Below are positions 5,759-54,530 of a DNA stretch of 64,000 nt, in pieces. The notes under the pieces were generated by a model. That model was not told where the DNA came from. It saw nothing but the letters and a program-made list of their open reading frames with translations, and ran no database searches. Origin of the DNA: Verrucomicrobiota bacterium (lineage in GTDB: Bacteria > Verrucomicrobiota > Kiritimatiellia > SS1-B-03-39 > UBA6053); NCBI GenBank assembly GCA_020831625.1, contig JAFIGD010000001.1, positions 139,296 to 203,295 of the forward strand. Reading direction: 5' to 3'. How positions within the stretch are numbered: position 1 is the first letter of the stretch; each line of letters starts with the position of its first letter. Position numbers and translations under genes: made by a program.

Positions 5759-7053
5759 TCCCGCCCGGCGCTCACGTCCACATCAGCGGGGTCGGCGGTG
5801 TCGGCATGAACGCCATCGCCCAGCTCCTCGCCGCCGACGGCTGCCGCGTCACCGGCTCCGACCGCTTCCTCGATCAGGGCACCCGCCTCCCCGTCTTCGA
5901 CGCCCTCGAAGCGCAGGGCGTCACCCTCGTCCCCCAGGACGGCTCCGCCCTCACCGCCGACACCGCCGCCCTCGTCATCAGCACCGCCGTCGAAGACACC
6001 AACCCCGAACGCCGCCGCGCCCGCGAACTCGGCATACCCGAACACCACCGCGCCGCGATCCTCGCCGACTTCGCCCGCCGCGGCCCCCAGATCGCCATCG
6101 CCGGCACCAGCGGCAAAACCACCTGCACCGGCTGGCTCGGCGTCGTCCTCGAACACTGCGGCCGCAACCCCAACGTCGTCAACGGCGGCGGCATCCTCAA
6201 CTGGAAATCCCCCGCCGCCCCCGGCAACGTCCGCCTCGGAGCCCCCGGCAACGAATGGGTCATCGAAGTCGACGAAAGCGACAAAAGCCTCCTCCGCTTC
6301 CACCCCGACACCGCCGTCATCACCAGCATCACCGCCGATCACCATTCCCTCGCCGACACCGTCGCCCTCTTCCGGCAGTTCGCGCAACAGGTGAAACACC
6401 ACCTCGTCTGCGGCCCCGGCGTGCGCCCCCACCTCGAAAACACCCCCGGCCTCACCGCCGAACTCCACGACATCGGCCCGCCTCTTCCCGTCCGTCACCC
6501 CGGCGAACACAACCGCGTCAACGCCGCCATCGTCGCCCGCCTCGCCGAATGCCGCGGAATCGACCCCGCCGCCGCCCGCAGCGCCCTTGATGCTTTTCAG
6601 GGGGTCGAACGCCGCCTCGAATCCCGCACCCCGCCCGGCGCCCGCCCCCGCGTGTTCGACGACTACGCCCACAATCCCGAAAAAATCGCCGCCGCCATCC
6701 GCGCCCTCCAGGAACCCGGCGAATCCCTCATCGTCCTCTGGCGTCCCCACGGCTTCGCCCCCCTCCGTCAAAACTTCGACGCCCTCGCCGCCGCCTTTGC
6801 CGACACCCTCCGCGCTCAGGATGAAGCCTGGATCCTCCCCGTCTTCTACGCCGGCGGCCTCGCCCCCAAAGGTATCGAAGGTGCCGACCTCGCCGACGCC
6901 ATTCAACAGCGCGGCACCAACGCCCGCGCCCTCGCGGACTATCCCGAAACCCTCGACCTCCGCCCCGGCCAAACCCTCCTCGTCATGGGCGCCCGCGACC
7001 CCGAACTTCCCGCCTTCGCCGGCCGCGTCGCCCGACACCTCCGCCAGCCGTGA
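5755..7053 (+). CDS. Mur ligase family protein (MurC / Mpl-like UDP-N-acetylmuramate ligase)
   Basis: 432 aa. The N-terminus reads HISGVGGVGMNAIAQLLAADGCRVTGSD, the P-loop reads IAIAGTSGKTTCT, and EVDESD is present; these match MurC/Mpl motifs. It shows ATGA start/stop overlap with the upstream bactofilin gene (5755-5758). Confidence 0.75.
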   Translation: MIPPGAHVHISGVGGVGMNAIAQLLAADGCRVTGSDRFLDQGTRLPVFDALEAQGVTLVPQDGSALTADTAALVISTAVEDTNPERRRARELGIPEHHRAAILADFARRGPQIAIAGTSGKTTCTGWLGVVLEHCGRNPNVVNGGGILNWKSPAAPGNVRLGAPGNEWVIEVDESDKSLLRFHPDTAVITSITADHHSLADTVALFRQFAQQVKHHLVCGPGVRPHLENTPGLTAELHDIGPPLPVRHPGEHNRVNAAIVARLAECRGIDPAAARSALDAFQGVERRLESRTPPGARPRVFDDYAHNPEKIAAAIRALQEPGESLIVLWRPHGFAPLRQNFDALAAAFADTLRAQDEAWILPVFYAGGLAPKGIEGADLADAIQQRGTNARALADYPETLDLRPGQTLLVMGARDPELPAFAGRVARHLRQP

Positions 7054-32936: not shown

Positions 32937-33149
32937 GTTTTTTCTAGAATTGTGGTTTTGTCTTAAAATGAAATGCTTTTCCCTTAGCAAAGGTCATCTT
33001 TCCCCTTAGATACTGTAAATCATTCATTACAAGCAAATTGCAACACTTTATCCCTTTTACCTTAAAATGACCTCTTTTGTTCTTAGCACTCTGAAACATC
33101 ACACTTAAACGGCATTAACCTCTTTAAAATAACAACTTATGTAATATTT

Positions 33150-35093: not shown

Positions 35094-35124
35094 TGGATTA
35101 AAATGAGTAGGCTTCGGCATCAGA

Positions 35125-36720
35125 CTACACCTCAATCGCATAAGGGGTTTGCTTGAACACGATTTGCTCCCGCTGCAGGGCGGAGGCCCCCAGGCGGCTG
35201 GCGGCCGCATATATCACCTTCGGCCCTTCATGAACCGGCAGCCCGTCCAGCACCGGACGCGTGAGAATATTGCCGCCCTGCGGACGCCGGTCACCCAGAA
35301 TCCCGTTGAACAGCAGATAAATCCCCCTTCCCTCATGCACCCCCAGCAACGGACTCGTCCCGTCGCCCGTGTACCCCAGACCCGTCTCCGAAAACCAGAC
35401 AAAATCCGCCAACTGCGCAAAGGTCACATCCTCCCGGATATCCCCGAACTCGTTGAACAGCGGCTCCCCGCTCAGACGGCAAAACTGAAATCCCCCGCCC
35501 AGCCCCGCCACCACCTTGCCCTTCGCGTCCGCATACCCCGCCGACACCCGCCGCACCCGCTCCGCCGTGATGTCCCGGGCAATGTTCTCCTCCATCTCCA
35601 CCAGAATGAATTTCCGCGTCCCCCCGTCCTCCGCATTCTGCTTCAACACCGCGTGCCCCGTCGTCCCGCTGCCGGCAAAACTATCCAAAATCATATCACC
35701 TTTGTCAGTCGCAATTTGAATAATGCGTTGAAGCAATCTAGTTGGTTTGGGGGTGTCAAAAGCTGTTTGTGTACCGAAAATCGCTCTAATCTCTTTCTTT
35801 GCCTCATCTGTATGACCTACTTCGTCATGCGGCCACCAAGTCCAAGGTACAAAACCCTCAACTTCTGACAAAAAGCGAATAATGCTTGGTTGTGAGTCGC
35901 CCTTCTTTCCGAAATAAATTCTACCCTCTGTCAGTAATTTTAGAAATTCACTTTCGATGGTTGACCAACAACGTCCTTCTGGCGGAATGATTTTTTTACC
36001 AGAAGGCGTTGTGATCTCGTACATTTGATTAGGCCTATAACCCTGTGCTGTCATGGGAATCCCACGCCATCGGCCTTTTGGATCATTATTTGGATTTTTG
36101 TAAACCTTGGCCTGTTTCTCGGTTAAAGGAACGAGATTCCTTGATTCTTGGAATTTTTTGGGGTTTGGAGCGTACACAAGCAAGTATTCATGTGCATCGC
36201 CGATGGAACCCCGATTTTCTCTAGAATAACGCTTTTGCCATGTATTACATGCAACGAATGAGGATAGCCCAAAGATTTCATCCATTAACGAGCGCAAGTT
36301 ATGGATCTCGGAATCATCCATTGAGATCCAAATAGATCCATCCGGCCGCAAAAACTGCTTCAGCAGCACCAGTCGCGGATACATCATGCAAAGCCACTTG
36401 TCATGACGGCAAAGATCCTCGGCCTCCTTGCCGACGGCTTCCCCCAGCCACTTTTTGATTTCCGGCGCGTTCGAGTTGTCGTTGTACACCCATCCCTCAT
36501 TCCCGGTGTTGTAGGGCGGATCGATGTAGATGCACTTCACCCGGCCCGCGTACTTCGGCAGCAGCGCCTTCAGCGCGTGCAGATTGTCCCCCTGCACAAT
36601 CAGGTTCCCGTCACGCCCCCCGCCCGCCGACAGCCCCGCATCCGGCTCCAGCAGCCGAAACGGCACCTCCTTGTGATGCCGAATCACCGCATCCTTCCCA
36701 ATCCAGTCCAGCGTCGGCAT
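35125..36720 (-). CDS. mod: Type III R-M Mod subunit (beta-class N6-adenine DNA methyltransferase) with a low-GC central target-recognition region
   Basis: Start at the ATG at 36720 (MPTLDWIGKD); the ORF-track start at 36738 is TTG. Motif IV reads IYIDPPYN (about aa 64-71) and motif I reads DSFAGSGTT (about aa 346-354). Nucleotides about 35690-36340 between them are visibly AT-rich. Confidence 0.85.
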   Translation of the reverse strand: MPTLDWIGKDAVIRHHKEVPFRLLEPDAGLSAGGGRDGNLIVQGDNLHALKALLPKYAGRVKCIYIDPPYNTGNEGWVYNDNSNAPEIKKWLGEAVGKEAEDLCRHDKWLCMMYPRLVLLKQFLRPDGSIWISMDDSEIHNLRSLMDEIFGLSSFVACNTWQKRYSRENRGSIGDAHEYLLVYAPNPKKFQESRNLVPLTEKQAKVYKNPNNDPKGRWRGIPMTAQGYRPNQMYEITTPSGKKIIPPEGRCWSTIESEFLKLLTEGRIYFGKKGDSQPSIIRFLSEVEGFVPWTWWPHDEVGHTDEAKKEIRAIFGTQTAFDTPKPTRLLQRIIQIATDKGDMILDSFAGSGTTGHAVLKQNAEDGGTRKFILVEMEENIARDITAERVRRVSAGYADAKGKVVAGLGGGFQFCRLSGEPLFNEFGDIREDVTFAQLADFVWFSETGLGYTGDGTSPLLGVHEGRGIYLLFNGILGDRRPQGGNILTRPVLDGLPVHEGPKVIYAAASRLGASALQREQIVFKQTPYAIEV

Positions 36721-36852
36721 CAGCAAGCCCCCCGGCAAACAGGAACCACCACAACATCACACCAAAAACGCATCAGATCACTCATTCCCCACTTCCTACC
36801 ACGCCCCCCGCCACCGGTCCAACCCCATTTTCAGATCACTCCGGGAAAAATG
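36660..36852. repeat. Copy A of an approximately 190-bp direct duplication covering the mod 5' end, start codon and upstream region
   Basis: Aligns, with substitutions and small indels, to 38847-39033. Both contain ...aatgccgaatcaccgcatc...cgtcggcatcag(c/t)aagccccccgg...aaaaacgcatca...ccacgccccc...ggtccaacc(c/t)cattttc...ccgggaaaaatg. Confidence 0.8.
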
Positions 36853-37372
36853 AGCCTGACTTCATTGTCACCCCTCATCCTCCGCACTTCCGTCATACAA
36901 AACCCGGCCGCTCAACTTGGAAACCATGATCAAACGGGAACTGCGAAGCATTGTACCGTCTTTTCCGTCATTCCAAGGCGAGAAAACGAACCACGATGGC
37001 TCAGAAGGCATATTATAGAGGCATATTTTTTCCGATAATGTACTCATGAGGGCTGGTGGAAGAGTGTAAACTCATTTTTATTCGCGGGTGTTTTGACAAA
37101 ACTGAATCATCCCCCTGCTGAAGTCAAGCAGGGAGGCACCTGAACAGAATCTAAAACACGCCGGAAAGGTATCAGGGTCCACCTGCCCGCAGTGCTGCGC
37201 ACAGCGTTGCAGGCGGGTCATCAGTGGTTTTCCCCAGTCGATCCGGTCGATCCCGGTAATCCCGTCAAAAATGCGCAGGACAGGCTTTGCTCCCTTCGCT
37301 CTCTTTGTTCTCTTTATCCTCTTCTGTAAAAATGATGAGATTTGCAGGTTCATCAGGTGAAAGGCCGCTTAA

Positions 37373-37431
37373 CTTGTTCAATTATTTTTCTTGTTCAATT
37401 ATTTTGAACAATGTATGATTCATGAACAATG
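37373..37431 (+). promoter_or_regulatory. Operator-like array of TTGTTCA / TGAACAA half-sites immediately upstream of, and overlapping, the start codon of CDS 37429
   Basis: TTGTTCAATTATTTT occurs twice (37375, 37392). There is a perfect inverted repeat TGTTCAA-ttatt-TTGAACA (37392-37410). TGAACAATG occurs twice (37405, 37423), the second containing the ATG. Confidence 0.4.
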
Positions 37432-38433
37432 AAACCTGAACACCAGTGGATTGCCCTGCGAAATGCCCTCATCGAACTTCCGGGGGAACCGATCTCGATT
37501 GACGAGAATCATTCTATTTTCACCTATCCCTCGGGCAAGGAAGTTGAATGGCGGTTTGGGGAAAAGCTAAGCACCCCATTTGTGGAGGGTTTGCTGAAGC
37601 ATAAGAGCAAAAAACCCTTGCTGCTGTTCTCACCTTACATCTCTCCCACCTTCGCGGAGCGGCTTCAGCGTAACGGGGTCTTTTTTGTGGATGAAACCGG
37701 GAATGCCTATCTTGAGTGGCCGGGGTATTATTTGTTTATCTCGCGGGACGTGCCAAAGAACTTGCGCCCCGGGAACAGTCAAAGAAAAGCGGGTAAGGAT
37801 TTTTCCCCCAGCGCACTCAAGCTGATCTATCTCTTTCTTACCGATACGAATAAGGGTGTCGGCGCGCGGGTGAATCATACCGTCCGACAATTAAATGCCG
37901 TCACGGGTATTTCCACCGGATCCATCAGCAACACCATGGACAGCCTGAAGGCGCAAAATTTTCTCGAAGAACGGGAGCCGGGAGTGCGGCGACTGGCCCA
38001 ACGGGAAAAATTGTTCGAACGCTGGGTGGAGGACTACACCCGCAAACTTCGGCCCAAACTGGTGGTGGAACACTACCGGCTCCCGCATCCCGGCTGGGCA
38101 AGTGAGCTGGTGCATACGGATGGCCCTGGCAAGTGGGGAGGCGAGGTGGCCGGGTCCAGACTCACCGGACATCTGGTGCCGGAAACCGTCACCCTTTACA
38201 CGGAAAATTTGCCGGCCAACTTTATTGTGAAAAATGACCTGCGCAAAGACCCGGCGGGGCGGGTGGAGATTCTGAGGCCCTTTACACCAATGGACCTGAC
38301 GGATCCAGCAGAGGCCTGTGTCCATCCTCTGCTCGTATATAGCGATCTCATGGCCTCCGAAATCGACCGCAACCTGGAAACCGCAAAACGGATTTATGAA
38401 AAATACCTTCGGCCTCTGGCAACATCCGATTGA
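37429..38433 (+). CDS. Low-GC hypothetical protein with a putative winged-helix segment (tentatively AbiEi-like antitoxin/regulator)
   Basis: 334 aa at about 50% G+C by eye. A candidate wHTH reads VRQLNAVTGISTGSISNTMDSLKAQNFLEE. It is preceded by the inverted-repeat operator. The family call is speculative. Confidence 0.4.
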   Translation: MKPEHQWIALRNALIELPGEPISIDENHSIFTYPSGKEVEWRFGEKLSTPFVEGLLKHKSKKPLLLFSPYISPTFAERLQRNGVFFVDETGNAYLEWPGYYLFISRDVPKNLRPGNSQRKAGKDFSPSALKLIYLFLTDTNKGVGARVNHTVRQLNAVTGISTGSISNTMDSLKAQNFLEEREPGVRRLAQREKLFERWVEDYTRKLRPKLVVEHYRLPHPGWASELVHTDGPGKWGGEVAGSRLTGHLVPETVTLYTENLPANFIVKNDLRKDPAGRVEILRPFTPMDLTDPAEACVHPLLVYSDLMASEIDRNLETAKRIYEKYLRPLATSD

Positions 38434-38836
38434 GAAAATAGTTTCCCTGCCCATGTTGGTCGTCCTGAAAATTGTGGCCGTGATGGACAGGGAACACGCC
38501 CGCCATAAAAAAGACGGTACCGATATTGCCTTCATTCTTGAAAACTACCTCAACGCGGGCAACGGTTTGCGTTTATTGGAGGGACCGAATGCGGATTTGA
38601 TGGCAGCTTGCGGCAATGATCTGGATGCCGCCACTGCGCGACTGTTGGGACGGGACATGGCCACGGAAATGCACCCGGACACCAGAAACCGCATTCGCAC
38701 ATATCTCGAGGAACAGGTGAAGAGTAGTGGGCGTTGTCACTTGGTTCATGGACTGATGGCTTCGTCCCGCTTCCCGACCTTCCCTGTTGCACGGGCTTGT
38801 CTGGGCAATGTACTTGCAGGGATAGAAAACATATGA
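38396..38836 (+). CDS. Low-GC small protein overlapping the previous CDS; KDGTDIAFIL motif reminiscent of the C-terminal region of AbiEii-type nucleotidyltransferases (tentative; possibly a frameshifted remnant)
   Basis: The ATG at 38396 lies inside the 3' end of the upstream CDS in another frame. The ORF track extends it to a GTG at 38318. It reads LKIVAVMDREHARHKKDGTDIAFILENYL. It is too short to contain an NTase fold. Confidence 0.3.
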   Translation: MKNTFGLWQHPIEKIVSLPMLVVLKIVAVMDREHARHKKDGTDIAFILENYLNAGNGLRLLEGPNADLMAACGNDLDAATARLLGRDMATEMHPDTRNRIRTYLEEQVKSSGRCHLVHGLMASSRFPTFPVARACLGNVLAGIENI

Positions 38837-38846
38837 TGAAAACCAA

Positions 38847-39033
38847 AACAGAACCTGCTGATAATGCCGAATCACCGCATCTTTGCCAATCCAGCGTCGG
38901 CATCAGTAAGCCCCCCGGAAAACCAGGCCCAATCCACCATCACAGCAAAAACGCATCACATCTCTCATCCCCCACTCCCTGCCACGCCCCCGCCCCCGGT
39001 CCAACCTCATTTTCTAACGACACCGGGAAAAAT
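38847..39033. repeat. Copy B of the mod 5' duplication, including a degenerate MPTLDW start-codon fragment (38858-38903, minus strand)
   Basis: Minus-strand atgccgacgctggattggcaaagatgcggtgattcggcat matches the mod start with a small deletion. It also drives the spurious ORF 38550..38903. Confidence 0.8.
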
Positions 39034-39059
39034 GTTGCTCCTTGGTAACAATTGTTACC

Positions 39060-39440
39060 GATTTAAGGAGTCCAACCCCATTTCCTGATCACTCCGGGAA
39101 AAATGAGTCGTTCCGACGCTCGAAAAAGGACCGGCATGATTTTCCGAACGTCGGAACGTTGGACTGGACCATTTCAAGGCTCGGAGGCAAAGCGGAAAAG
39201 CATCAGTGTCCACCTTCCCGCAGTGCTACGCGCAGCGTTGCAGGCGGGTCAGTGTCATCAGTGGTTTTCCCTCACCATACCTAAATCCCTTCCGCCCAGG
39301 CACAGAGGATAGGTATCAGTGTTCATCAGTGTCATCAGTGGTTTTTCTCCACCGCACCTTGCCCCTCCACCCAAGCACGGCGGACAGGTAGATATCCGTG
39401 TCCATCCGTGTCCATCCGTGGTTCTATTCTTCCGTGCCCC
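39060..39440. repeat. Mosaic of short interspersed repeat families X, Y, Z and W in non-coding DNA downstream of the 128-aa ORF
   Basis: X element: ccaaccccatttcctgatcactccgggaaaaatgag (also at about 36815 and about 39000). Y element: palindromic hairpin gttccgacgctcg...cgtcggaac (39098-39148; also 46662-46710 and 61985-62035). Z element: cccgcagtgctacgcgcagcgttgcaggcgggtca...tcagtggttttcc (also about 37180-37235). W elements: two units of cacRgMggaYaggtatcagtg...atcagtggttttt, the same family as the 52745-53455 array. Confidence 0.8.
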
Positions 39441-39448
39441 GGGTTCCC

Positions 39449-39835
39449 TCATCCTCCCGCATTCTCCGCGATCACCCGCTCCAGCTCCTCGATCATCTTC
39501 ACGAGGTCGCTCAAATAGATCGCCTCGGCCATGGGCTTGCCGTCGCTTTGATCCCGAAGCGGCACGAAAAATCCGTCCCGCCATTGCTTGCATTTCGCAA
39601 CCAGGGCGTCGTGCGCCAGCGCCCTCGCGGCGGTTTCGTCCAGCAGACGCATGATTTCCCGCAAAATGAATTGCGTCACCGCCCCTTTCTGCGCGAGCAG
39701 GGTGCGGATCTCGGGATCGAGGCCGGCGGAGCGCGCGTCGAGTTCCCGGTTGAGTTCCCCCAGAATTTCCGTGGCCGTGTCCAAGGCATGGCTGCTGGTT
39801 TTGGGTTTATTCGCCACTTTATTCGCCTTGGACAT
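39449..39835 (-). CDS. Small hypothetical protein (128 aa) overlapping the 3' end of the giant ATPase gene by 17 nt
   Basis: ATG at 39835. No motif was recognised. It is helical and charged. Confidence 0.45.
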   Translation of the reverse strand: MSKANKVANKPKTSSHALDTATEILGELNRELDARSAGLDPEIRTLLAQKGAVTQFILREIMRLLDETAARALAHDALVAKCKQWRDGFFVPLRDQSDGKPMAEAIYLSDLVKMIEELERVIAENAGG

Positions 39836-42800
39836 GACCGCCCCCCTGTCCGAGTTCGTCGATCAAAACGCGGTACGCCCCCCGGGCCCGCCGCAGACGT
39901 TCCTGCAAGTGCTCGGGATCGCTTTCCCCTTCGTGATGCAGACTCTCCTGCAGGCGCTCGAACTGCTGCTCCAGCAACAGCGACAGCTTGGAGGCCCCCG
40001 CCGGTTTTTCCGCTTTCGCCGCCACTTCCGGGGGCCGCGCTCTGGCGAGAATATCCTCCAGCCGGTCCAGGGTGTCCGCGCCGAGAACCGTTTCCACCGG
40101 ACCCGCGGGCGCTTTGCCGCCCACGCCCTGCTTCAGCACGTCGCGAATTTCGTGCAGACCCTCGCCCAGTCCGGAAAGCTGGGCCACCGCCTGCCCCACC
40201 CGGTCGTCCTCTCCGGCGCCGCGCAACAACTGATTGCGGGCGTAGGAGCGTTTGATTTCCGCCCACCGGGCCTGTTCTTCTTCGGTGGCCAAGTCGAGGA
40301 TCAACCTGAATTTCAGCAGGTTGGCCTCCGCGCCGGTCGTGAGCGTCTGGGCTTCGTTGGTGTATTCGGAATAAATCGTGGTTTCCAGTTCCCGCTCGTT
40401 CATCACCGCCTCCACCTTCTCGGCGAGACGGTTCATGTTGCGGTAGGACCCCTGCAGCTTGAAAGCCGGTTCGGTGCGGAACTCGTCCGCCTGCCCGGCG
40501 CTGCGGATGTATTCCTCGTTCACGCGCAGGACCACGTCCCGGATGCGAATCATCTTTTCCATCACCGAAATAATTTCCTGCAGCTCGCCCGCGGAATAGT
40601 TGCCTTCCAGCTCCACCCCTTCGCGGGACCCGGTTTCGGCGATGCGGATGACCGAATAAATGTCTTTCTTGCTGCCGGAGGACAGCCGGTTCAGGGCCGG
40701 ATTCGAGGTGAGCGCGTTTTCGAGGAAGCTGAGCTTGAACACGTCGCCGTTGTCCCCGAGAATGTCCCCGAGGTTATAGGTGTCGGCGCGGTTGGCGAGC
40801 ATGTCGGGGATACGGAATTTCTCCCCGCTTTCGGTGTAGGGGTTCCCGGCCATGACCACAGACACTTTTTTGCCGCGCAGGTCGTAGGTTTTCGTGTTCC
40901 CTTTGTACACACCCTCGATTTTGCGCTGCGCATCGCACAGCGAAATGAATTTCTGCAGAAACTCGGGATTGCAGTGCTGGATGTCATCGAGATAAATCAT
41001 CACGTTGTCGCCCATTTCCAACGCCAGCCCCAGCTTGTGCAGCTCCTCGCGGGCGGCGGCGTTGGGCGCTTCACTCGGATCGAGCGATGTGACGTGATGC
41101 CCGATGGCGGGTCCGTTGATTTTCATAAACACCACGCCCAATCGGTTGGCGACGTATTCCATCAGCGTGGTTTTCCCGTACCCGGGCGGGGAAATGAGCA
41201 TCAACATGCCGCTGCGGTCAGTACGGGTGTTGTGACCCGCCACCCCGATCTGCTTGGCGAGGTTGTCGCCGATCAGCGGCAGGTACACGCGGTCGATGAG
41301 CCGGTTGCGCACAAAGGAGGTCATCACCCTGGGCTTGAATTCGTCCAGACGCATTTCCTTGCGGGTCCGCTCCAGAAATTCCTTTTTCATGCGGCCGAAG
41401 GCCTCGAAACGGGGCACGGATTCGCGCACAAAGCGGTCCAGCCGCAACACGAATTCGTTGTACCGCAGTTCCAACCGACCCTCCTGCAATCGGCGGTGCG
41501 CCCCGCGCAGTCCCCCGATCTCCCGGCGGGTCCCCAGTTCGGAAACGCGGGCGGGCGCATAGGCCTCGGCGAACACCAGCGCCGCCGCCTCGTCCAGTCC
41601 TTCGGCCCATTCCCCGTTGGGCTTGCTTTCCAGATAACCGCGCATCCATTCACGGATCAGGCCATATTCCGCCACCGGACGGCTTCGGACCTTTTCCCGC
41701 GCCTCGTCGAACGCTTTTTGACCCGCGAGCTTCTTGAGATGCGCCTGAAACGCCTTGATCAGCGCCCCGGCTTCGGGGCTGATGGGATGCTCGCCCTCCC
41801 CGGTTTCCACGTCGAACAGATACGTCGCAGCAGTCTCCGCCAGCCGGGGATCAAACCAGGGGACGGATTCCGCGAACGCGGCGATGCGGTCCCGCAATTC
41901 GCTCAGCGCGTCGTCCTGACGCCGCTGCTGACGGAAGACTTTGTTGGAGGCGGCCATGCCCTGCAAACGGGCCTGCATGATCTCAAAGGCCTCGTCCTGT
42001 TTGAACCCGGTCCAGAACACCAGCGCCAGCGCCCGGGCGGAGGTGTGCGCCCGCAGCAGACCCAGCGAAAAATGCATTTCCAAAAGCGCCTTGAGGATTT
42101 TCCCGGCATCCTCGTCATGCACCCCCTTTTGATAGCCCTCGGCATAGCGGGGCGCCATAAAGGTCTGCACCTTCTGAATCAGCGCGGGCTCCTCCAGCTC
42201 CGCGTCCTCGGGTCGGGCATCCGCCAAGAGGCGATATGCCAGATATTCGGCCCGATAGACCTCCGCATCCTCTGAAATCAGATCCTGGGACCACACGGAG
42301 CGGGTTTCGAGAAACGCGGAATCGGTGATGGCTTCGAAAAAATTGGTGCCGGTCAGGTGCATCATCATCTGATCGCCGCGCGGCACGATGGTGAGGTCCA
42401 GCGCCTGGGTGTTCACCGAGAACTGATGCCGCCCGAATTTGATGATGTTTTCCCCGCCCACGAACAACTCGGATCGGTCATGCAACTGCCGCACCCCCTC
42501 CTCGCGGGCGCTCTTGAGCTTGGTCTCAATGTCCCCGGCTTTCACCGGATCATCCAGTTCCTTGAGCTGATCCACAATCCCGCGCAGCTTCTCAATCATC
42601 AAATCGGAGGCGAAGTAGCCGTTGATCTCCTCCACGGTTTTCATCGCGTCCACGCGACCCTTGACGCTGTTGAGAATGCGTTCCGCGCTGCGCTGCAGCG
42701 TGTCGGCCCGTTTGTTGCGCGCCTCCACCAGCGACAGACGGCGGGTTTCGAAGGCGTTGTACACTTCCTCCCGCTTTTCGGAGAGCTTGGCCACATAGTC

Positions 42801-45017
42801 GTCGAAATCGGAGAATTTCCCCTCCAGTTCCTCCAACTGAATCATCACCCGTCCCAAATAGCTCTCGCATTTTTCCGGGGAATCACAGACATCCAGATAA
42901 TTAATCACCGCCTGGGACAGCAGCTTCATTTGCGAGGCGAACTCGGCTGAGCCCTCCACCTGGGCCAAATCCCGGATCTTGTTGGTCAGCGCCGCCCGGG
43001 CCTGATTGATCCCGGAAAACAGCGCCGAAATTCCGTCAATGATCCGGGTGCGCTGGGTGGCGTCGTCGATTTTCAGATTGCTGACGATTTCGATGAGCAT
43101 TTCCAGTTCGCCGCTGACCGCCTCGATTTCCTCCTTGAGTTCCTCCCCGTCCTTCACCTTGTCGAGTTTGGCGATGCGCGGTTCCAGGCCTTCAATCTTC
43201 TTCGCGTACGGGGTCATGGCATCGTCGCGCAGCAGGAAATCCACGCATCGCCGGGCCTGACGCTCCGTATGCTCGCGCACCGTTTTTTCCAGCTCATCCA
43301 CCCTCGCCCCGTCCATATAGCGCAGCTCGCGCAGGGAAATCACCTTGCCCCGCAAAGCCCGCAGGCCGGAGAGGGTGTCCACGTGGCCGTTGATGTCGTC
43401 GTGACGCCGCAGACGGATTTCGTTCAGAAGATCCCGGGTTTCTTTTTCCGCCTCCTTGAGCCGCGACGCGGCCGCGTTTTGCAACTGCACCACCTTCTCG
43501 TACTCGTCAATGGCGGCGGCGGCGGCCTCTTTGATTTTCTCCAGCGGCTCGCCCGGATCAAACGCAGCAGACTCGCGGATCCAGAAAAAACTGTCCAGCA
43601 AATCGGTGGATTGACGTGAAACATCCACATACAGATTCGCGTAATTGTCCTCGCGGTTGAGCAGACCCAGCAGTGTCTGACAGCCCGCCATACAGCGGAC
43701 AATATCGCGGTTGCCGATTTTAAAGAGCATCGAATCCTTGTGTTCGGTCACCGCCTCCGCCGTGGCCGAATACGGGGTTTGCCAGACCTGCACCACATGC
43801 GATTTGGTGTGCTCTTCCTGGGCCTTGAAATACATCAGCTCCCCGTCTTTAAAGAGACTGTAGCCGTGGCAGTCGATGGGGGTCTCCACGGTCTGGCTGA
43901 TCAAATTGTAGGAGAGCAGTCCATAGGTCCCGTTTTCACGGTTGTAGAAAATAAACAGGGTGTCCTCACCGTTCGGCGAGGCCACGCGCCGCTCGAAAAG
44001 CATATCGCTGTTGGCGCTGTCGAACTGTTTGTATTCACCGGTCTGGAGATAATAGCCGTTGGGGAAAATAATCCCGTGGTCCTCGGGCAGCAGCACGCAG
44101 GCTCCGGCGATGGCGTCCATGCGCCGCGCCTCGCGGACCTTTTCGCTGTACACGAAATAGCGGAATTTGCTTTCGCGGTAGGGTTTGATTTTCATCAAAA
44201 TCAAATTGCCCACGGAGGCGAAATGAAATTCCGCGTCGTCCAGGGTTTGATCCGGATCCTCCACCGCCTCGGTATAAATCCCCTCGCCGCTGGTCGTGTT
44301 GTCCTCGATCTTGATGGTCAAATTGCCGCCCATGGTTTCCACGAACACCCGGTCCTGGAACGAAATGTGGGGGAATTCGCCGCTGCGCTGCATGTCGCGG
44401 GTGGCCCGCACCCACTCGAACTCGTGCTGGGACGGAAACCGGTATTCATGATCGCTGCGGTTGTCCACATACGTGAACGACCCGTCATCCCCGCGCAGCC
44501 ACTTAAAACACTTCACATCCTTCACGTCCTTGCCCACACGGAACACCATGAAAATATGAGGCCCCACCCGCATGAACTTGGAGAAACGCGTATTCTTGTA
44601 GTATTTGTACAGCTCCGAAAAATCGCGGGCAAACCCCGGATCGTTTAGCAGATCCAGCGTGTCTTCGGTCAGTTTGTGATCCTCAAAGCGATAGACCGCG
44701 AACACATCCTCCGGGGTCATCTCCCTGCGGAGGCCCAGTTGCACATTATAGCCGAAGAGCATTTTCGAGCCCACCGCCACCATGTCGCGCGGCACGCAGT
44801 TGTTGGCCGTCAGCACCCGCTCCGTGCCCACCAGTTTTGGTTCCACGGAGCCGAACACATCACGGCGGGCCGCATTCAGCTTGTCCACCCGCTCCTGCAG
44901 CGCCTCGCCATGCCCCCGCAGACGGCGGCGGATGATCTCATACGCGCCCCCCTCAAACACCGGAGCCTCCGCGCCCGCTTTTTGTTCGTCAGTAACGTTG
45001 GATTTGGAATCAGTCAT
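39819..45017 (-). CDS. Giant (1732 aa) protein with a C-terminal AAA+ ATPase domain (MoxR/McrB-like arrangement); N-terminal roughly 1270 aa unknown and partly coiled-coil
   Basis: Walker A reads LISPPGYGKTTLMEY (about aa 1273-1287, nt about 41160-41200). Walker B reads NVMIYLDDIQH. The sensor region reads VSVVMAGNPYTESGEKFRIPDMLANRADTY (compare MoxR ATQNP...PEAQLDRF and McrB GTMNtaDrs...ALrRRF). It starts 29 nt after COG2865 gene 2. Confidence 0.7.
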   Translation of the reverse strand: MTDSKSNVTDEQKAGAEAPVFEGGAYEIIRRRLRGHGEALQERVDKLNAARRDVFGSVEPKLVGTERVLTANNCVPRDMVAVGSKMLFGYNVQLGLRREMTPEDVFAVYRFEDHKLTEDTLDLLNDPGFARDFSELYKYYKNTRFSKFMRVGPHIFMVFRVGKDVKDVKCFKWLRGDDGSFTYVDNRSDHEYRFPSQHEFEWVRATRDMQRSGEFPHISFQDRVFVETMGGNLTIKIEDNTTSGEGIYTEAVEDPDQTLDDAEFHFASVGNLILMKIKPYRESKFRYFVYSEKVREARRMDAIAGACVLLPEDHGIIFPNGYYLQTGEYKQFDSANSDMLFERRVASPNGEDTLFIFYNRENGTYGLLSYNLISQTVETPIDCHGYSLFKDGELMYFKAQEEHTKSHVVQVWQTPYSATAEAVTEHKDSMLFKIGNRDIVRCMAGCQTLLGLLNREDNYANLYVDVSRQSTDLLDSFFWIRESAAFDPGEPLEKIKEAAAAAIDEYEKVVQLQNAAASRLKEAEKETRDLLNEIRLRRHDDINGHVDTLSGLRALRGKVISLRELRYMDGARVDELEKTVREHTERQARRCVDFLLRDDAMTPYAKKIEGLEPRIAKLDKVKDGEELKEEIEAVSGELEMLIEIVSNLKIDDATQRTRIIDGISALFSGINQARAALTNKIRDLAQVEGSAEFASQMKLLSQAVINYLDVCDSPEKCESYLGRVMIQLEELEGKFSDFDDYVAKLSEKREEVYNAFETRRLSLVEARNKRADTLQRSAERILNSVKGRVDAMKTVEEINGYFASDLMIEKLRGIVDQLKELDDPVKAGDIETKLKSAREEGVRQLHDRSELFVGGENIIKFGRHQFSVNTQALDLTIVPRGDQMMMHLTGTNFFEAITDSAFLETRSVWSQDLISEDAEVYRAEYLAYRLLADARPEDAELEEPALIQKVQTFMAPRYAEGYQKGVHDEDAGKILKALLEMHFSLGLLRAHTSARALALVFWTGFKQDEAFEIMQARLQGMAASNKVFRQQRRQDDALSELRDRIAAFAESVPWFDPRLAETAATYLFDVETGEGEHPISPEAGALIKAFQAHLKKLAGQKAFDEAREKVRSRPVAEYGLIREWMRGYLESKPNGEWAEGLDEAAALVFAEAYAPARVSELGTRREIGGLRGAHRRLQEGRLELRYNEFVLRLDRFVRESVPRFEAFGRMKKEFLERTRKEMRLDEFKPRVMTSFVRNRLIDRVYLPLIGDNLAKQIGVAGHNTRTDRSGMLMLISPPGYGKTTLMEYVANRLGVVFMKINGPAIGHHVTSLDPSEAPNAAAREELHKLGLALEMGDNVMIYLDDIQHCNPEFLQKFISLCDAQRKIEGVYKGNTKTYDLRGKKVSVVMAGNPYTESGEKFRIPDMLANRADTYNLGDILGDNGDVFKLSFLENALTSNPALNRLSSGSKKDIYSVIRIAETGSREGVELEGNYSAGELQEIISVMEKMIRIRDVVLRVNEEYIRSAGQADEFRTEPAFKLQGSYRNMNRLAEKVEAVMNERELETTIYSEYTNEAQTLTTGAEANLLKFRLILDLATEEEQARWAEIKRSYARNQLLRGAGEDDRVGQAVAQLSGLGEGLHEIRDVLKQGVGGKAPAGPVETVLGADTLDRLEDILARARPPEVAAKAEKPAGASKLSLLLEQQFERLQESLHHEGESDPEHLQERLRRARGAYRVLIDELGQGGGHVQGE

Positions 45018-45046
45018 GAGATTAAAAGGTATTTAGGTTATTTTAT

Positions 45047-46555
45047 TCAGGATTCGATAAATTCGAGTCCCTGGGACGTAAGGCGATATTTTTGTAAAGG
45101 ACTTTTCGGTTTTTCCGGAAGCGTCATTTCCACCAAGCCGCATTCAAGCAACGGGATCAAATGCCGTTTATAGTTTAAATAAGCATTGGCCATCCCTATA
45201 GAGTGAAACAATTCAGCTTTGTTTTTCGCTCCTGATTTCATTTCACGAAGCAACTTGTACCCCTGCTTACTCACTTGCTCACCAGCTTGCTCACCAGCTT
45301 GCTCACCAGCTTGCGTATTCTTTTTACGGTTTCGATCAGACACATTCGTTTCCTGATTTGTTTTCGATCCTTCTTTTTGCGACAGGCGACTCTGTTCCGG
45401 CATCAGGGTTAAAGCATTTTTTAAGAAGACGGTAACCCGAACCCGATTAGCCAGTTCTCTTATTTCAGGGTCCTTCAGCCCCAGATTTTCCGCCTCGCGG
45501 AATATACCGGGAATGCCGCTGCCCCATTGCTCAATAAAATCGAGTTCCTTAAACACACGTGCAATCACCGGATTCCTGATCTGAGAAACACCAAGTTTCA
45601 AATCCTCCGGTCGCAGACCCGGCAATAAAAGTCCGGGATTCTCAACTTCAATCCGATCATCATAAAACGCAACACGAACGGGTGTGCCTGTATGGGAATA
45701 ATCCGCATGAACCAAAGCATTGATCACAACCTCACGAAGAATGTTTATGGGAATACTCCAAAGATCTTTCCTGCGAACATCCGAGAAATCAGCCCCGCGC
45801 ATAGCGTGTTTCTTTAAAAACAACATGATTTCCGCCACAGATTTGGGCATGGGGTCATTGATTTCAATGTGATCAAAAATCACAGCTTTGTCCTGCCCCA
45901 TAAAACGGCCGCACTGTATCCATGCGTCGTCAAAATAACGGCGGCGGTTGAGTCCGTACAGCAAAAACCCGCCATGGCTGGGAACCAATTTCCCCTGATG
46001 AAGCACAAGGATTTTAAGACTTTGCATTTTCAGTTCATCAATGATTACGGTTGAAAAATCCTCCCGGATTCTTTCCAGATCCAAATCCTCAACTCCGAAT
46101 TGAGGCATCGGTAACGCATCAAAGCTTACACCTGCCGAACCTCTTTCCAGTTCTGAGATCAGCCGGGTGTCCGCCTGGCGGTTCGTGGCGCCTAACCTGA
46201 CATAAACCCCTTTTTCCATCCCTTCACTTTTTAAGTAATGCGGTCGCGTGTTGCTGGGAAAAACCTCAAGCAATAAAAGCGTTTTCCCGTTTACAGTGGT
46301 TAATTCGATATTTGGCACCAGGTGAGGGGCTATACAATCTGAAATTAAATTGCTGATTCGCTCCACTTCTCCCAGTGGATCTTGAACGCCCACCACATTA
46401 CCGTGATCATCCAGACCGACGATCACCCGCCCCCCGGCAGAATTAGCAAAAGCCACCAGTGTTTTCATCAGGGGTTTAGGTGAAGAAAGGTCACGCTTGA
46501 ACTCAAGCGTTTTACTCTCAGGATCCTTTAAAAGTTCTGGTATGGACAGGGACAT
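45047..46555 (-). CDS. Schlafen-like ATP-binding protein, COG2865 type (AlbA_2 plus HATPase_c_4 plus wHTH), paralog 2
   Basis: Start chosen at the ATG at 46555 (MSLSIPELLKDPESKTLEFKRD); the ORF-track start at 46600 is GTG. It reads LREVVINALVHADYSHTGTPVRVAFYDDRIEVENPG. It contains an (AGEQ)3 repeat linker. Confidence 0.7.
   Translation of the reverse strand: MSLSIPELLKDPESKTLEFKRDLSSPKPLMKTLVAFANSAGGRVIVGLDDHGNVVGVQDPLGEVERISNLISDCIAPHLVPNIELTTVNGKTLLLLEVFPSNTRPHYLKSEGMEKGVYVRLGATNRQADTRLISELERGSAGVSFDALPMPQFGVEDLDLERIREDFSTVIIDELKMQSLKILVLHQGKLVPSHGGFLLYGLNRRRYFDDAWIQCGRFMGQDKAVIFDHIEINDPMPKSVAEIMLFLKKHAMRGADFSDVRRKDLWSIPINILREVVINALVHADYSHTGTPVRVAFYDDRIEVENPGLLLPGLRPEDLKLGVSQIRNPVIARVFKELDFIEQWGSGIPGIFREAENLGLKDPEIRELANRVRVTVFLKNALTLMPEQSRLSQKEGSKTNQETNVSDRNRKKNTQAGEQAGEQAGEQVSKQGYKLLREMKSGAKNKAELFHSIGMANAYLNYKRHLIPLLECGLVEMTLPEKPKSPLQKYRLTSQGLEFIES
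45267..45314 (-). repeat. 12-bp tandem repeat (caccagcttgct, about 3.7 copies), in frame in COG2865 gene 2; encodes (AGEQ)n
   Basis: cacttgct caccagcttgct caccagcttgct caccagcttgcg, read at 45271-45314. Confidence 0.8.
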
Positions 46556-51637: not shown

Positions 51638-52744
51638 ATGAATATCGGCATTATCGGCGTCAGCGGATTTGGAGCGCGGCATTATGATGACCTGCTCCGC
51701 GAAGTGGAACAGGGAAACGCAACGGCGGCCGCCGCCTGCATCATCAATCCCGAAGAGGTTCTGGAAAAAGTGGCGCGCCTCCGATCCCTGGGCTGTCGCA
51801 TCTATGATGATGTGTCCTCACTTTTCGCGGCGGAAACCGGACGCCTGGACCTGGTGCTCATCCCCACCGGCATCGCCACCCACCGTCCCTTCACAGAGAT
51901 GGCCCTGGCCGCCGGCGCGCATGTTTTCGTCGAAAAACCGGCCGCTCCCACCGTGGCCGATGTCGACGCCATGATCGAAGCAGAGGCAAACGCCGGCCGC
52001 CGCGTGTTTGTCGGATTTCAGCACCGCTATGATCCCCTGACCCGTGAGCTGCAGCAGCGCCTGCATTCCGGCGAACTTGGCCGAATCCTCGAAGTGCGGG
52101 GGTCGGGCTCCTGGCCCCGGGCGCTTTCCTATTACCAACGCAACGCCTGGGCCGGCAAACTCCGGCACAACGGCGCGCCCGTGAATGACGCGCCCTTTAA
52201 CAACGCCTTCGCGCACGATGTGTTAACCGCTCTCTGGTTCGCCTCGCCGGAATGTGGCCGCGCCGCCGACCCCCTGCGCGTCGAAGCCGAACTCCACCGC
52301 GTGAACGACATTGAAAGCTGCGACACCGCCTTTCTGCACCTTGAAACCGACGGGGCCCCGGTGCATCTCGCCTTCACCCACGTCGGCGAAACACCCCGGG
52401 AGCCCCGCATCCGCGTGATCGGCGAAAAAGGGGAATTCATCTGGTCGCATAAGGAGGCCCGAATCCTCGGCGGAAACGGCCAGATCGTCTGTAAAGACTG
52501 TCTCTCCACAGAGGCCCTGAGATCGGCCATCTTCCGAAATATCCGCGAGGTTCTCCGGAACAGTCCCGATGCCGGCCCGGTCTGTACGCTCCCCCTCGCC
52601 CGCGCCCAAACCCGCGCCGCCGAAACAGCCCTCGCCGCACCCATCCGCCAAGTTCCCCCCAATCACATCCGCCGCCTGCAAACAGAAGACGGAGAAATCC
52701 GCCTGATCTGGGACGAAGCGGACGCGCGGCTGGCCGAATTCTAA
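51638..52744 (+). CDS. Gfo/Idh/MocA family NAD(P)-dependent oxidoreductase
   Basis: 368 aa. The N-terminal Rossmann motif reads MNIGIIGVSGFGARHYD, and a typical EKP (VFVEKPAA) motif is present. Confidence 0.8.
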   Translation: MNIGIIGVSGFGARHYDDLLREVEQGNATAAAACIINPEEVLEKVARLRSLGCRIYDDVSSLFAAETGRLDLVLIPTGIATHRPFTEMALAAGAHVFVEKPAAPTVADVDAMIEAEANAGRRVFVGFQHRYDPLTRELQQRLHSGELGRILEVRGSGSWPRALSYYQRNAWAGKLRHNGAPVNDAPFNNAFAHDVLTALWFASPECGRAADPLRVEAELHRVNDIESCDTAFLHLETDGAPVHLAFTHVGETPREPRIRVIGEKGEFIWSHKEARILGGNGQIVCKDCLSTEALRSAIFRNIREVLRNSPDAGPVCTLPLARAQTRAAETALAAPIRQVPPNHIRRLQTEDGEIRLIWDEADARLAEF

Positions 52745-53455
52745 CGCCCAGGCACGGCGGATAGGTATCAGTGTCCATAAGTGTTATCAGAGGTTTTTCC
52801 TCTCCGTACTCTACATCCTCTCCACCCAGGCACGGCGGAAAGGCATCCGTTTTCATCCGTGGTTCCTCTCCACCGGAATTCAACCACTGATTCCACTGAT
52901 TTTCACTGATCCAGCACGACGGAAAAAATCGGGAATTCATTTCATAAACGCCATACACAATATCAACGTCCATCCGCAGGTACTCTCGACCACCCAAGCA
53001 CGGCGGAAAAGTATCAGTGTCCATCAGTGTTATCAGTGGTTTCTCTTCCCCGCACCCTAAATCGCTTTCACCCAAGCACGGCGGAAAGGCATCAGTGTTA
53101 TCAGTGGTTTCTTTTCACCGTACCCTAAGTCCCCTCCGCCCAGGCACAGCGGACAGGTATCAGTGTTCATCAGCGGCTCCTCTCCACCGGAATTGAACCA
53201 CTGATTCCACTGATTTTCACTGATCCAGCACGCCGCAAAAATTTGAGAGTTCATTTCATACATTCCATACATAAGATCAACTCCCATCCGAACTTCTCCG
53301 CCACCCAAGCACGGCGGAAAAGTATCAGTGTCCATCAGTGTTATCAGTGGTTTCTCCTCTCCATACCCTACCCCTCCGCCCAGGCACGGCGGAAAGGCAT
53401 CCGTGTCCATCTGTGTCCATCCGTGGTTAAACCAACCCTCTTATCACAGGCCTAC
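52745..53455. repeat. Degenerate tandem array of the W repeat family (about 55-bp core with three direct ATCAGTG heptamers), filling the whole convergent intergenic region
   Basis: Core: ccaRgcacRgcggaMaRgYatcagtgtccatcagtgttatcagtggtttctc. Units start at about 52753, 52831, 52999, 53077, 53145, 53310 and 53395, giving spacings of 78, 168, 78, 68, 165 and 85. Two units carry an insert of about 110 bp with three inverted heptamers (cactgattccactgattttcactgat). The whole arrangement is present as two copies of a roughly 305-bp super-repeat. Confidence 0.85.
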
Positions 53456-53459
53456 AGTG

Positions 53460-54530
53460 TTAGGCCTTGGAATGCCGGACGGTTTCGCGCGGCTCAATCA
53501 ATTCGTGAACCGTCAGCACCGCGCTGCCGAGGAGCAGACAGGCCATGACCTGATGGGCGACGGCAACGTGAAGCTGAACGCCCGAAACCAGAGTGTACAT
53601 CCCCAGAACAAACTGCAGGATGCCGCACAGAAACAACAGATTAAACCCAAGCTTTTGACGCTCCATCAGGCGGTGCGACTGCGCGAACAGCCAGAGCGCG
53701 ATCAGCGCCGCCACGACCGCCAAGCCCAAGTGACGGTGCACGAACTGCACCGCCGCAGGATCGGTGAAAATATTCCACCGCGTCTCCGGAAAAAACCGTC
53801 CGCCCATCAGCGGGTACGTATTGTACATGTGACCCGCCTGCAGGCCGGCGGTAAACGCGCCGTACACAATCTGGAGCGCCAACAGGCCCAGGAAAATCAT
53901 GCTGTATTTCCGCAGCCGGACCACGGAATGATAATTGGTTTTCCGGTGTGTCCAGAACGGGTTCAAATCCAGCACAATCCACAACAGATAACTGAAGAGC
54001 GCCAGCGCCATGGACAAATGCGCGGCCAGCCGGAAATGACTCACCCGCGGGAGTTCCGCGAAACCGCTGCGCACCATAAACCAGCCGAGAAATCCCTGTC
54101 CGCCCCCCAGAATCAGTCCCAGCAAAAGTTTCCACCGCAGAGAGCCTTTCACCCGCCCCCGCACCCAGAACCAGACCATCGGCAGCGCGTAGGCCAAACC
54201 GATAAACCGACCCAGCAGCCGGTGAATATATTCCCAAAAATAGATCTCCTGGAAATCCGGAAGCGTCATCTCCCCGAGATTGCGGCTGAACTGCTCGTAC
54301 TGGGCGGTGGCGTTCTGCTTGTAGAGATCAAACGCCTTCTGCCATTCGCTCTCGTTGCGCGGGGGAACCGCGCCCATGATCGGATTCCAGTCCGCAATCG
54401 ACAACCCGGAGCCGGTCAGCCGCGTGATCCCGCCCACCGCCACCATAATCACAATCAGCGTACACACCAGCCAAAGCCAGTAGGCGACAGGGCGGGGATC
54501 GTCGGGCGAAAGCCTGGTCTTCTTTTTCAT
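53460..54530 (-). CDS. ctaA: Heme A synthase (COX15/CtaA family)
   Basis: 356 aa with 8 TM helices. It has the conserved His-containing helices typical of CtaA/COX15 (HRLLG..., HRHLG...). Confidence 0.8.
   Translation of the reverse strand: MKKKTRLSPDDPRPVAYWLWLVCTLIVIMVAVGGITRLTGSGLSIADWNPIMGAVPPRNESEWQKAFDLYKQNATAQYEQFSRNLGEMTLPDFQEIYFWEYIHRLLGRFIGLAYALPMVWFWVRGRVKGSLRWKLLLGLILGGGQGFLGWFMVRSGFAELPRVSHFRLAAHLSMALALFSYLLWIVLDLNPFWTHRKTNYHSVVRLRKYSMIFLGLLALQIVYGAFTAGLQAGHMYNTYPLMGGRFFPETRWNIFTDPAAVQFVHRHLGLAVVAALIALWLFAQSHRLMERQKLGFNLLFLCGILQFVLGMYTLVSGVQLHVAVAHQVMACLLLGSAVLTVHELIEPRETVRHSKA

Follow-up and report, generated by a model that had tools for sequence, protein, structure and literature searches.

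A cluster of ATCNGTG heptamer arrays in a Verrucomicrobiota contig and its probable tie to genes of GxxExxY nucleases

A degenerate repeat at positions 52745-53455 of a 64,000-nt stretch of DNA from a Verrucomicrobiota bacterium (contig JAFIGD010000001.1; the whole stretch is here called the window) raises the question of what kind of element it is, and which protein, if any, reads it. The explanation preferred here, to which a probability of about 60% is assigned, is that the cluster is an orphan, non-autonomous member of a widespread family of heptamer repeats tied to a small nuclease, the GxxExxY protein (TIGR04256; PF13366, PDDEXK_3).

The heptamer ATCAGTG was found 26 times in the window (4.5 copies expected; maximum of 10 in 100 shuffled sequences), and 16 of these copies were concentrated in 52767-53349. 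Triple heptamer arrays numbered seven in the window and zero in 50 Markov shuffles. A preliminary description, made from the sequence without database searches, had reported a degenerate tandem array of approximately 700 bp built from ATCAGTG. The array was recovered and the word had to be widened to ATCNGTG, since whole units (units 2 and 7 of the cluster, and 39394-39420) are built of the variants ATCCGTG or ATCTGTG. The recurrences of a core, at least seven according to that description, correspond to seven well alignable direct units of 54-80 bp each in 52749-53428, with neighbouring units 68-80 bp apart and a period of 68 in Tandem Repeats Finder. Their layout consists of a conserved head (CCCARGCACGGCGGAAAGG), two to three heptamers at a spacing of 9-10 bp, GTTTCTC and a pyrimidine-rich tail; the heptamer sets of the window units end in GGTT.

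All seven direct units are on the plus strand. Unit 1 (52749-52824) carries the degenerate heptamers ATCAGTG, ATAAGTG and ATCAGAG followed by GTTT, and unit 2 (52825-52878, repeat family D3) the variants ATCCGTT and ATCCGTG followed by GTTCC. ATCAGTG is present three times in unit 3 (52993-53070), where GTTTCTC follows, twice in unit 4 (53071-53138) and three times in unit 6 (53304-53378). Unit 5 (53139-53192, family D2) has ATCAGTG and ATCAGCG and is the paralogue of unit 2 in a duplicated super-unit. Unit 7 (53379-53428) reads ATCCGTG, ATCTGTG and ATCCGTG, then GTTAAACC, and ends about 32 bp from the stop codon of the convergent COX15-CtaA gene.

Two inverted heptamer triplets lie on the minus strand, at 52882-52910 (minus-strand reading ATCAGTGaaaATCAGTGgaATCAGTGGTT; pairs I1 and I2) and at 53196-53224 (pairs I3 and I4), within the inserts of about 110 bp that had been noticed before. 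Each triplet and the direct unit after it contribute 29-nt arms with 83% complementarity, about 100 bp apart. The first triplet and unit 3 are the left and right arms of module 1, a minus-then-plus or (-)(+) module resembling a REPIN (a doublet of repetitive extragenic palindromic, REP, sequences), and the second triplet and unit 6 are those of module 2. The spacer of module 1 (52911-52992, about 100 bp) contains neither an open reading frame (ORF) nor a GxxExxY remnant; that of module 2 (53225-53303) belongs to family D2. The super-unit of about 311 bp is indeed duplicated, as had been proposed (52776-52976 and 53090-53290, 84% identity, spacing 314), and a second duplicated family in the cluster shows spacings of 246 and 311. 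The cluster fills the convergent gap between genes for a GFO_IDH_MocA oxidoreductase (51638-52744, plus strand) and COX15-CtaA (53460-54530, minus strand), in agreement with the non-coding placement described earlier.

The distribution of such arrays was studied by a motif scan of one genome per species with the pattern ATCAGTG-N2-3-ATCAGTG-N2-3-ATCAGTGG. ATCAGTG triplets followed by G were present in at least 118 stretches, from Verrucomicrobiota, Acidobacteriota, Bacteroidota, Planctomycetota, Lentisphaerota, Latescibacterota, Ignavibacteriota, KSB1, Hydrogenedentes and Cyanobacteria. Most of the matches were discrete triplets, and a few were plain 9-bp microsatellites or coding repeats (L006, L013, L057 and L095). 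The flanks of the triplets were unrelated between matches, and the trailing bases were typical of the clade, being GGTTnAA in Verrucomicrobiota, GGTAAG in Acidobacteriota and GGC or GGG in Bacteroidota. According to crude ORF calls, about 125 of 137 occurrences were intergenic, with an excess at gene 3' ends, and in many cases an opposite-strand gene ended no more than some tens of bases away from the array. Outward inverted pairs, in which three copies of CCACNGAT, a spacer of 8-200 bp and three copies of ATCNGTG followed by G succeed one another, were frequent, and both (-)(+) modules of the window share this architecture. Among the viral contigs of IMG/VR, just 10 had an ATCAGTG triplet (L201-L210), two of them contigs of giant-virus metagenome-assembled genomes (GVMAG); with 10 matches alone in that collection, the arrays are not regarded as a phage feature.

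Compared across these loci, the defining module appears to be two to eight heptamers (A/T)T(C/T)N-G(T/C)G, 9-10 bp apart, of which the outermost is always followed by G. At least two (A/T)T(Y)NG(Y)G words with this spacing, an outermost word followed by G and an intergenic location were all found in the window, and the cluster is very probably a member of this heptamer-array family. It could also be imagined as a neutral minisatellite, that is, as a local tandem duplication peculiar to one lineage, with no partner acting in trans and only coincidental likeness elsewhere; duplication in tandem and of the super-unit has clearly enlarged the cluster, the spacers of its units are specific to the lineage, and the four microsatellite matches of the scan are of that kind. 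This explanation is nevertheless highly improbable, given that the triplet with its terminal G and its inverted partner recurs at unlinked sites of the window and in many phyla, that not one triple array is expected by chance in the window, and that a sample selected by gene, described below, shows a strong enrichment of arrays at GxxExxY gene ends.

A candidate partner emerged from the loci found with the motif. In two loci of Chitinophagaceae (L043 and L089) and one of Acidobacteriaceae (L070), the members of an outward pair were about 440-470 bp apart and the interval was filled by a single ORF of about 125-140 amino acids; ORFs of the same type directly adjoined arrays in Bacteroidales (L039) and in an Opitutales metagenome-assembled genome (MAG; L102). 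The enclosed ORFs were identified as GxxExxY, with matches to TIGR04256 at 1e-36 to 1e-39 and to PF13366 (PDDEXK_3) at 1e-34 to 1e-37. In the Opitutales MAG the gene is flanked by arrays of the same variant, and one array, ATCAGTGGTTGAAT, matches the inverted triplets of the window.

As these five loci had been picked by motif, a gene-first test was carried out, in which metagenomes were scanned with a GxxExxY alignment and 80 loci were chosen by protein alone. With the narrow word ATCNGYG, arrays were found within 300 bp in 31 of the 80 loci, typically as a minus-strand array 38-106 bp before the start codon and a plus-strand array 3-55 bp after the stop codon. The layout was the same in the other loci, where the words were ATTCGTG, ATTTGTG, TTTCGTG, ATTCGCG, ATTAGCG, TTCCGTG, TTCTGTG and ATTAGTG, and the consensus of the flanking words was (A/T)T(T/C)N-G(T/C)G. 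When this generalised word was applied to the 73 loci with both flanks, outward arrays were present on both sides in 47, on one side in 19 and on neither in 7, so that 66 of the 73 had arrays at the gene ends. Array density was 5.2 per kb within 200 bp of the gene versus 0.45 per kb beyond 500 bp, an enrichment of about 11-fold. The 3' array often overlaps or abuts the stop codon (e.g. AAATCTGCGTAAtctgtgg), and the 5' array is placed 0-100 bp upstream of the start codon or within the first codons.

Additionally, 41 of the 63 ORFs located between outward arrays of at least three copies were GxxExxY; the others were mostly antisense shadows of the same loci, or short ORFs of no family, including the window's own. 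The two arrays of one locus share their variant (0.43 mismatches, versus 2.0 between loci), and protein identity was related to heptamer similarity with rho = -0.32, stronger than the relation with GC difference.

Several heptamer variants coexist in one genome, as seen in an Opitutales MAG (L046) with ATCAGTG-type arrays at 2806-2833 and TTTCGTG-type arrays around its GxxExxY gene (6600-7190). In two metagenomic loci (L142 and L144), orthologous insertion sites hold a GxxExxY gene flanked by different array variants, and in L142 an ATCTGTG array is nested within an ATTCGTG pair, which suggests that termini were layered or replaced.

For the GxxExxY protein, of about 125 amino acids, modelling gave a minimal PD-(D/E)XK nuclease whose catalytic residues are conserved. 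The AlphaFold2 model, built with 33 homologues, had a mean predicted local distance difference test value (pLDDT) of 94.8 and a predicted template modelling score (pTM) of 0.87, and the invariant positions of the alignment were E30, which is the glutamate of the GxxExxY motif, D70, E80 and K82, the last three forming a D...ExK triad. No solved relative was found in a sequence search of the PDB; PADLOC gave a weak partial match for only one of four GxxExxY proteins, and PHROGs gave none. The family comprises 21,821 representatives at 50% identity (E <= 1e-3). In the 2012 census of the PD-(D/E)XK superfamily, the function of PDDEXK_3 was given as unknown and multiple transfers between divisions were recorded (PMC3424549). 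Some members, such as P0153, P0156 and P0160, have 250-290 amino acids and two tandem GxxExxY domains, and one protein of 635 amino acids carries the domain at its C-terminus.

Comparisons between strains were informative for one member of the family, P0104, which was identical in every residue on at least 24 contigs from different samples and always encoded between DapF-DUF374 and LeuD-LeuC. Its flanks carry a 74-bp array-plus-spacer unit one, two or at least three times, on either side, and the unit architecture is that of the window cluster; the comparison of copy number between strains that had been recommended for the repeat therefore yielded a difference at this locus. Some strains have, and others lack, a (-)(+) module of about 190 bp near P0104, and the borders of this module show a possible imperfect duplication of 8-9 bp (CCCGRGGTT / CCCGTGTT), a single candidate. 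Since the position of the gene is fixed, mobility of the gene itself is not supported. Another member from Verrucomicrobiota (P0109) forms a compact (-)gene(+) cassette inside a type I restriction-modification operon. Many members of the family were found on very short contigs, which assembly-breaking repeats would produce.

For the window locus, the relatives available for strain comparison were, besides the same assembly, just one 1.4-kb Logan contig that ends inside the array. A Verrucomicrobia MAG (L085) is 86% identical to the window over 4.7 kb and has arrays at non-orthologous positions. Its positions 1-120 hold a full ATCAGTG triplet and a solo ATCAGTGGTT that abuts a conserved terminator-like hairpin (GTTTCCGACGCTCGGAA...); at the equivalent place the window has unrelated sequence, and a degenerate array of two heptamers lies about 90 bp upstream (46455-46473). 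From this alignment, the difference appears to be a gain or loss of an array between close relatives, with its junction between ATCAGTG and GTTTCC.

The main rival explanation is that the arrays are sites of a conserved host protein (nucleoid-associated protein, regulator, or roadblock to transcription or replication) and that the GxxExxY genes are selfish, homing-type inserts at such sites. PD-(D/E)XK homing endonucleases exist, e.g. I-Ssp6803I; orphan arrays far outnumber the genes, short-spacer (-)(+) pairs might represent unoccupied target sites, and both the preference for gene 3' ends and convergent gaps and the presence of the core T..GYG at helical spacing in very distant phyla count in its favour. 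We consider it unlikely, on the other hand, because array variants follow the gene beside them and agree between its two sides, the arrays overlap start and stop codons as the termini of an element do, no other protein family is consistently near them, and the copy number varies between strains, unlike that of a fixed regulatory site. The RNA-level rival, considered below, and the minisatellite are less likely.

Several observations also weigh against the link with the nuclease. No GxxExxY gene or remnant was detected in the window by jackhmmer and relaxed hmmsearch in six frames; the arrays of the window are for this reason taken as orphan copies, and their link to the nuclease is one of family resemblance alone. 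For over 95% of the motif-first arrays, the retrieved sequence, of up to 8 kb, contained no GxxExxY gene. Those GxxExxY proteins that have ATCAGTG arrays on their flanks are just 24-40% identical to one another, which speaks against a strict protein-to-heptamer code, and some loci show the reverse layout (-)(+) gene (-)(+). The P0104 gene keeps its chromosomal position across strains, only the one imperfect target-site-like duplication was found, with none obvious at the loci inspected by eye, and a nuclease of 125 amino acids has no obvious strand-transfer activity.

The possibility that the repeat acts as RNA, as a terminating or stabilising element in 3' untranslated regions, as RNase III sites or as a small RNA with AUCAGUG protein-binding motifs, was assessed by homology and folding. 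Rfam 15 gave no match at gathering thresholds, and in E-value mode (E <= 10) the best match was a chance microRNA with 21 bits against a threshold of 60; the scans of the repeat for tRNA and tmRNA (transfer-messenger RNA) were empty. The folding of both strands suggested in the preliminary description lent the repeat no structure of its own, as single units folded like shuffled sequences on either strand, both as RNA and as DNA (z-scores of -0.9 to +0.2). The whole (-)(+) module folds into three short helices with internal loops (z = -3.4 as RNA, -3.6 as DNA), a long interrupted stem that is significant because the module is an inverted repeat, as any inverted repeat would be; the hairpin-bearing unit at 39190-39272 reaches z = -3.3. 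These two folds and the location of arrays directly after gene ends are the points that favour an action as RNA.

Among 202 outward pairs, however, complementarity was not specific to the pairing register (identity at variable positions of 0.813 in register versus 0.822 when shifted), and the arms can differ at heptamer position 4, e.g. CACGGAT facing ATCAGTG. With respect to the neighbouring genes, arrays are found in either orientation, no sigma-70-like promoter was found in a promoter scan of the locus, and no T-tract terminator lies inside the array, the sole terminator-like site being upstream at 52704-52687 (minus strand). An RNA-level role is accordingly quite improbable. In the same 202 pairs the spacers were no more than 55% alike. 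Words that are conserved while their pairing is not argue for a protein that recognises a series of sites at intervals of about one helical turn.

The classes to which the repeat had been compared were then weighed one against another. A CRISPR array has identical repeats of 24-48 bp, unique spacers of similar length and, as a rule, cas genes close by; here the "spacers" between units are mutually homologous, the repeats are degenerate and internally repetitive, and no cas gene is found among the annotated neighbours, so that the earlier verdict against CRISPR was upheld. The suggestion of iterons or protein-binding arrays was borne out in its second half, by conserved heptamers, variable spacers and the lack of covariation; plasmid or phage iterons, which are direct repeats of 17-22 bp beside a rep gene and an AT-rich unwinding region at one origin, were rejected, as there is no rep gene and the arrays occupy at least three chromosomal sites in the window and hundreds elsewhere. 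A REP palindrome was likewise rejected: REP sequences need an imperfect palindrome of 20-40 bp with a GTAG/CGTC head, and the units here are direct heptamer arrays with no excess folding. The placement is of the REP/REPIN type (high copy number outside genes, as inverted doublets and in tandem clusters), and the 29-nt arms give the modules the terminal inverted repeats and small size of miniature inverted-repeat transposable elements (MITEs), many similar pairs being present elsewhere. The idea of a genome-specific REP/MITE-like family thus fared well for its extragenic behaviour and had to be given up for its restriction to one genome, the motif being present in many phyla.

A REP-associated tyrosine transposase (RAYT, HUH Y1 type, PF01797) was sought as partner. 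The sole family between arrays was PF13366/TIGR04256; beside the arrays of the window neither a RAYT nor another transposase was found, the annotated neighbours being housekeeping or defence genes. The partner of the RAYT/IS200 kind that had been predicted is therefore replaced by the GxxExxY PD-(D/E)XK nuclease. A MITE or insertion sequence (IS) with a recognised transposase parent was rejected too, since the enclosed ORF is a PD-(D/E)XK domain of 125 amino acids and nothing else. To our knowledge, DnaA boxes, IHF sites, integron core sites, tetO, PhoB boxes, MraZ boxes and anti-Shine-Dalgarno complementarity do not fit the word, the spacing and the distribution. Searches of open-access papers and bioRxiv gave no description of heptamer arrays nor of a function for GxxExxY/PDDEXK_3 and, together with the Rfam and tRNA results, fit the earlier failure to recognise the repeat, which matches no RNA or repeat family described in these sources.

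For the preferred reading, of arrays tied to the GxxExxY nuclease, the following mechanism can be proposed. Several GxxExxY protomers would bind the repeated words on one face of the DNA and would nick or cut near the outer GTG-G boundary; repair or recombination would then copy the arrays, and sometimes the gene, to other intergenic sites, and misaligned repair or unequal exchange would enlarge units in tandem. Orphan arrays would be acted upon in trans by the nuclease, much as REPINs are by RAYT. From the sequence comparisons, the probability that the nuclease uses the arrays as its recognition sites is just short of even. Pairs without a gene look like REPINs or MITEs, and single arrays with a spacer of about 45 bp appear to multiply in tandem, as in the window. 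The window cluster itself is probably selectively neutral DNA between converging genes, with at most an incidental effect on their 3' ends. Only tentatively, and with somewhat more doubt than confidence, can GxxExxY genes and arrays be put forward as a new selfish or domesticated class found across many phyla, made up of cassettes of about 470 bp in which inverted arrays of 7-nt words enclose the gene of the 125-amino-acid nuclease, of REPIN-like non-autonomous derivatives and of tandem clusters of solo ends.

If this is true, a second and mechanistically independent counterpart of REP/RAYT would exist, and a first function would be available for a family of more than 20,000 diverse members. 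An anonymous repeat becomes a candidate substrate, in that the PF13366 family is tied to a recognisable motif, (A/T)TYNGYG. A functional link would account for a common source of assembly breaks, and of small ORFs spuriously annotated as "hypothetical proteins", in Verrucomicrobiota, Acidobacteriota, Bacteroidota and Planctomycetota, would add a second long-lived partnership of repeat and nuclease to that of REPIN and RAYT, and would offer loci for strain typing, because unit numbers vary between strains.

Further units are present in the window near 39.2-39.4 and 37.2 kb, where related copies fused to a GC hairpin had correctly been pointed out. Two direct units occupy 39291-39440 (plus strand), with ATCAGTG three times and then ATCCGTG three times. 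The hairpin-bearing unit at 39190-39272 (plus strand) has a GC-rich hairpin of 32 nt in place of the middle heptamer and pairs, in direct orientation, with a second hairpin-bearing unit at 37160-37235 (plus strand) around an AbiEi module. The hairpin, CCCGCAGTGCTGCGCACAGCGTTGCAGGCGGG, is common to both units, its copies differing at 2 positions, and the units flank the AbiEi antitoxin gene (37429-38433) and an ORF without Pfam match. It was absent from all 220 fetched loci. A nested mini-element is one possible reading of the hairpin; alternatively, its two copies may mark the ends of a cassette that was inserted.

The region 33000-45100 is of low GC content, 46-55% in 33-39 kb and rising to about 60% by 40-45 kb, and looks like a defence island; its genes encode a Schlafen AlbA_2/HATPase_c_4 protein, an N6_N4 DNA methylase, AbiEi and a DUF3686/AAA ATPase of 1732 amino acids. 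Other repeats of the window are a 21-bp tandem repeat inside the Schlafen-like ORF (33512-33609; 4.7 copies, 93% matches), a perfect 12-bp repeat, CTTGCTCACCAG, at 45274-45314 (3.4 copies), the heptamer TCACTCG in tandem at 8419-8547 (18.4 copies, 90% matches), in a strongly C-skewed region of high GC content, and a run of 32 C residues at 5081-5112 (93% matches), possibly a phase-variable tract or an assembly artefact.

Among known systems, the omega protein of pSM19035, with its WATCACW heptads, and the MraZ boxes resemble the heptamer arrays in that short direct or inverted words are read cooperatively. These sites are, in contrast, promoter or centromere sites at one or few loci and not dispersed, the omega heptads are contiguous with a 7-bp period in place of the spacing of 9-10 bp, and the partners are ribbon-helix-helix or AbrB-like binders, not nucleases. 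Genes of PD-(D/E)XK homing endonucleases such as I-Ssp6803I are, like those of GxxExxY, small and compact in intergenic or operon-internal sites, e.g. the type I restriction-modification operon mentioned above. Homing endonucleases are directed to a single long, asymmetric target within a conserved gene, unlike the situation at GxxExxY loci, and their genes are not bracketed by arrays of short repeats nor accompanied by orphan repeat clusters.

MITEs and IS elements share with the arrays the (-)(+) modules of 100-200 bp with terminal inverted repeats, the tight packing of one ORF in the longer ones, and one presence/absence polymorphism with a possible duplication of 8-9 bp. The array elements differ from them in having no DDE, serine, tyrosine or HUH transposase and no consistent target-site duplications, in inverted repeats that are internally repetitive, and in solo ends that amplify in tandem.

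The closest analogue, as far as the comparison of features allows, appears to be the REPIN/RAYT system (PMC3116915, PMC3337134). The arrays do not belong to it, since neither of its two defining features is shared: the heptamer array is non-palindromic, without the GTAG/CGTC tag, and is composed of direct 7-nt words at 9-10 bp, and its partner is a PD-(D/E)XK nuclease (PF13366) in place of a HUH Y1 transposase. The heptamer word is, moreover, conserved across phyla, whereas REPs are lineage-specific, and the GxxExxY gene is, unlike RAYT, multi-copy in many metagenomic populations. In both systems, on the other hand, the repeats are short, extragenic and high-copy, often between convergent genes, and occur as singles, as inverted pairs separated by a spacer and as tandem clusters comparable to bacterial interspersed mosaic elements (BIMEs); in both, a small nuclease-type gene is flanked by inverted repeats, and this gene appears positionally stable while the number of repeats varies between strains.

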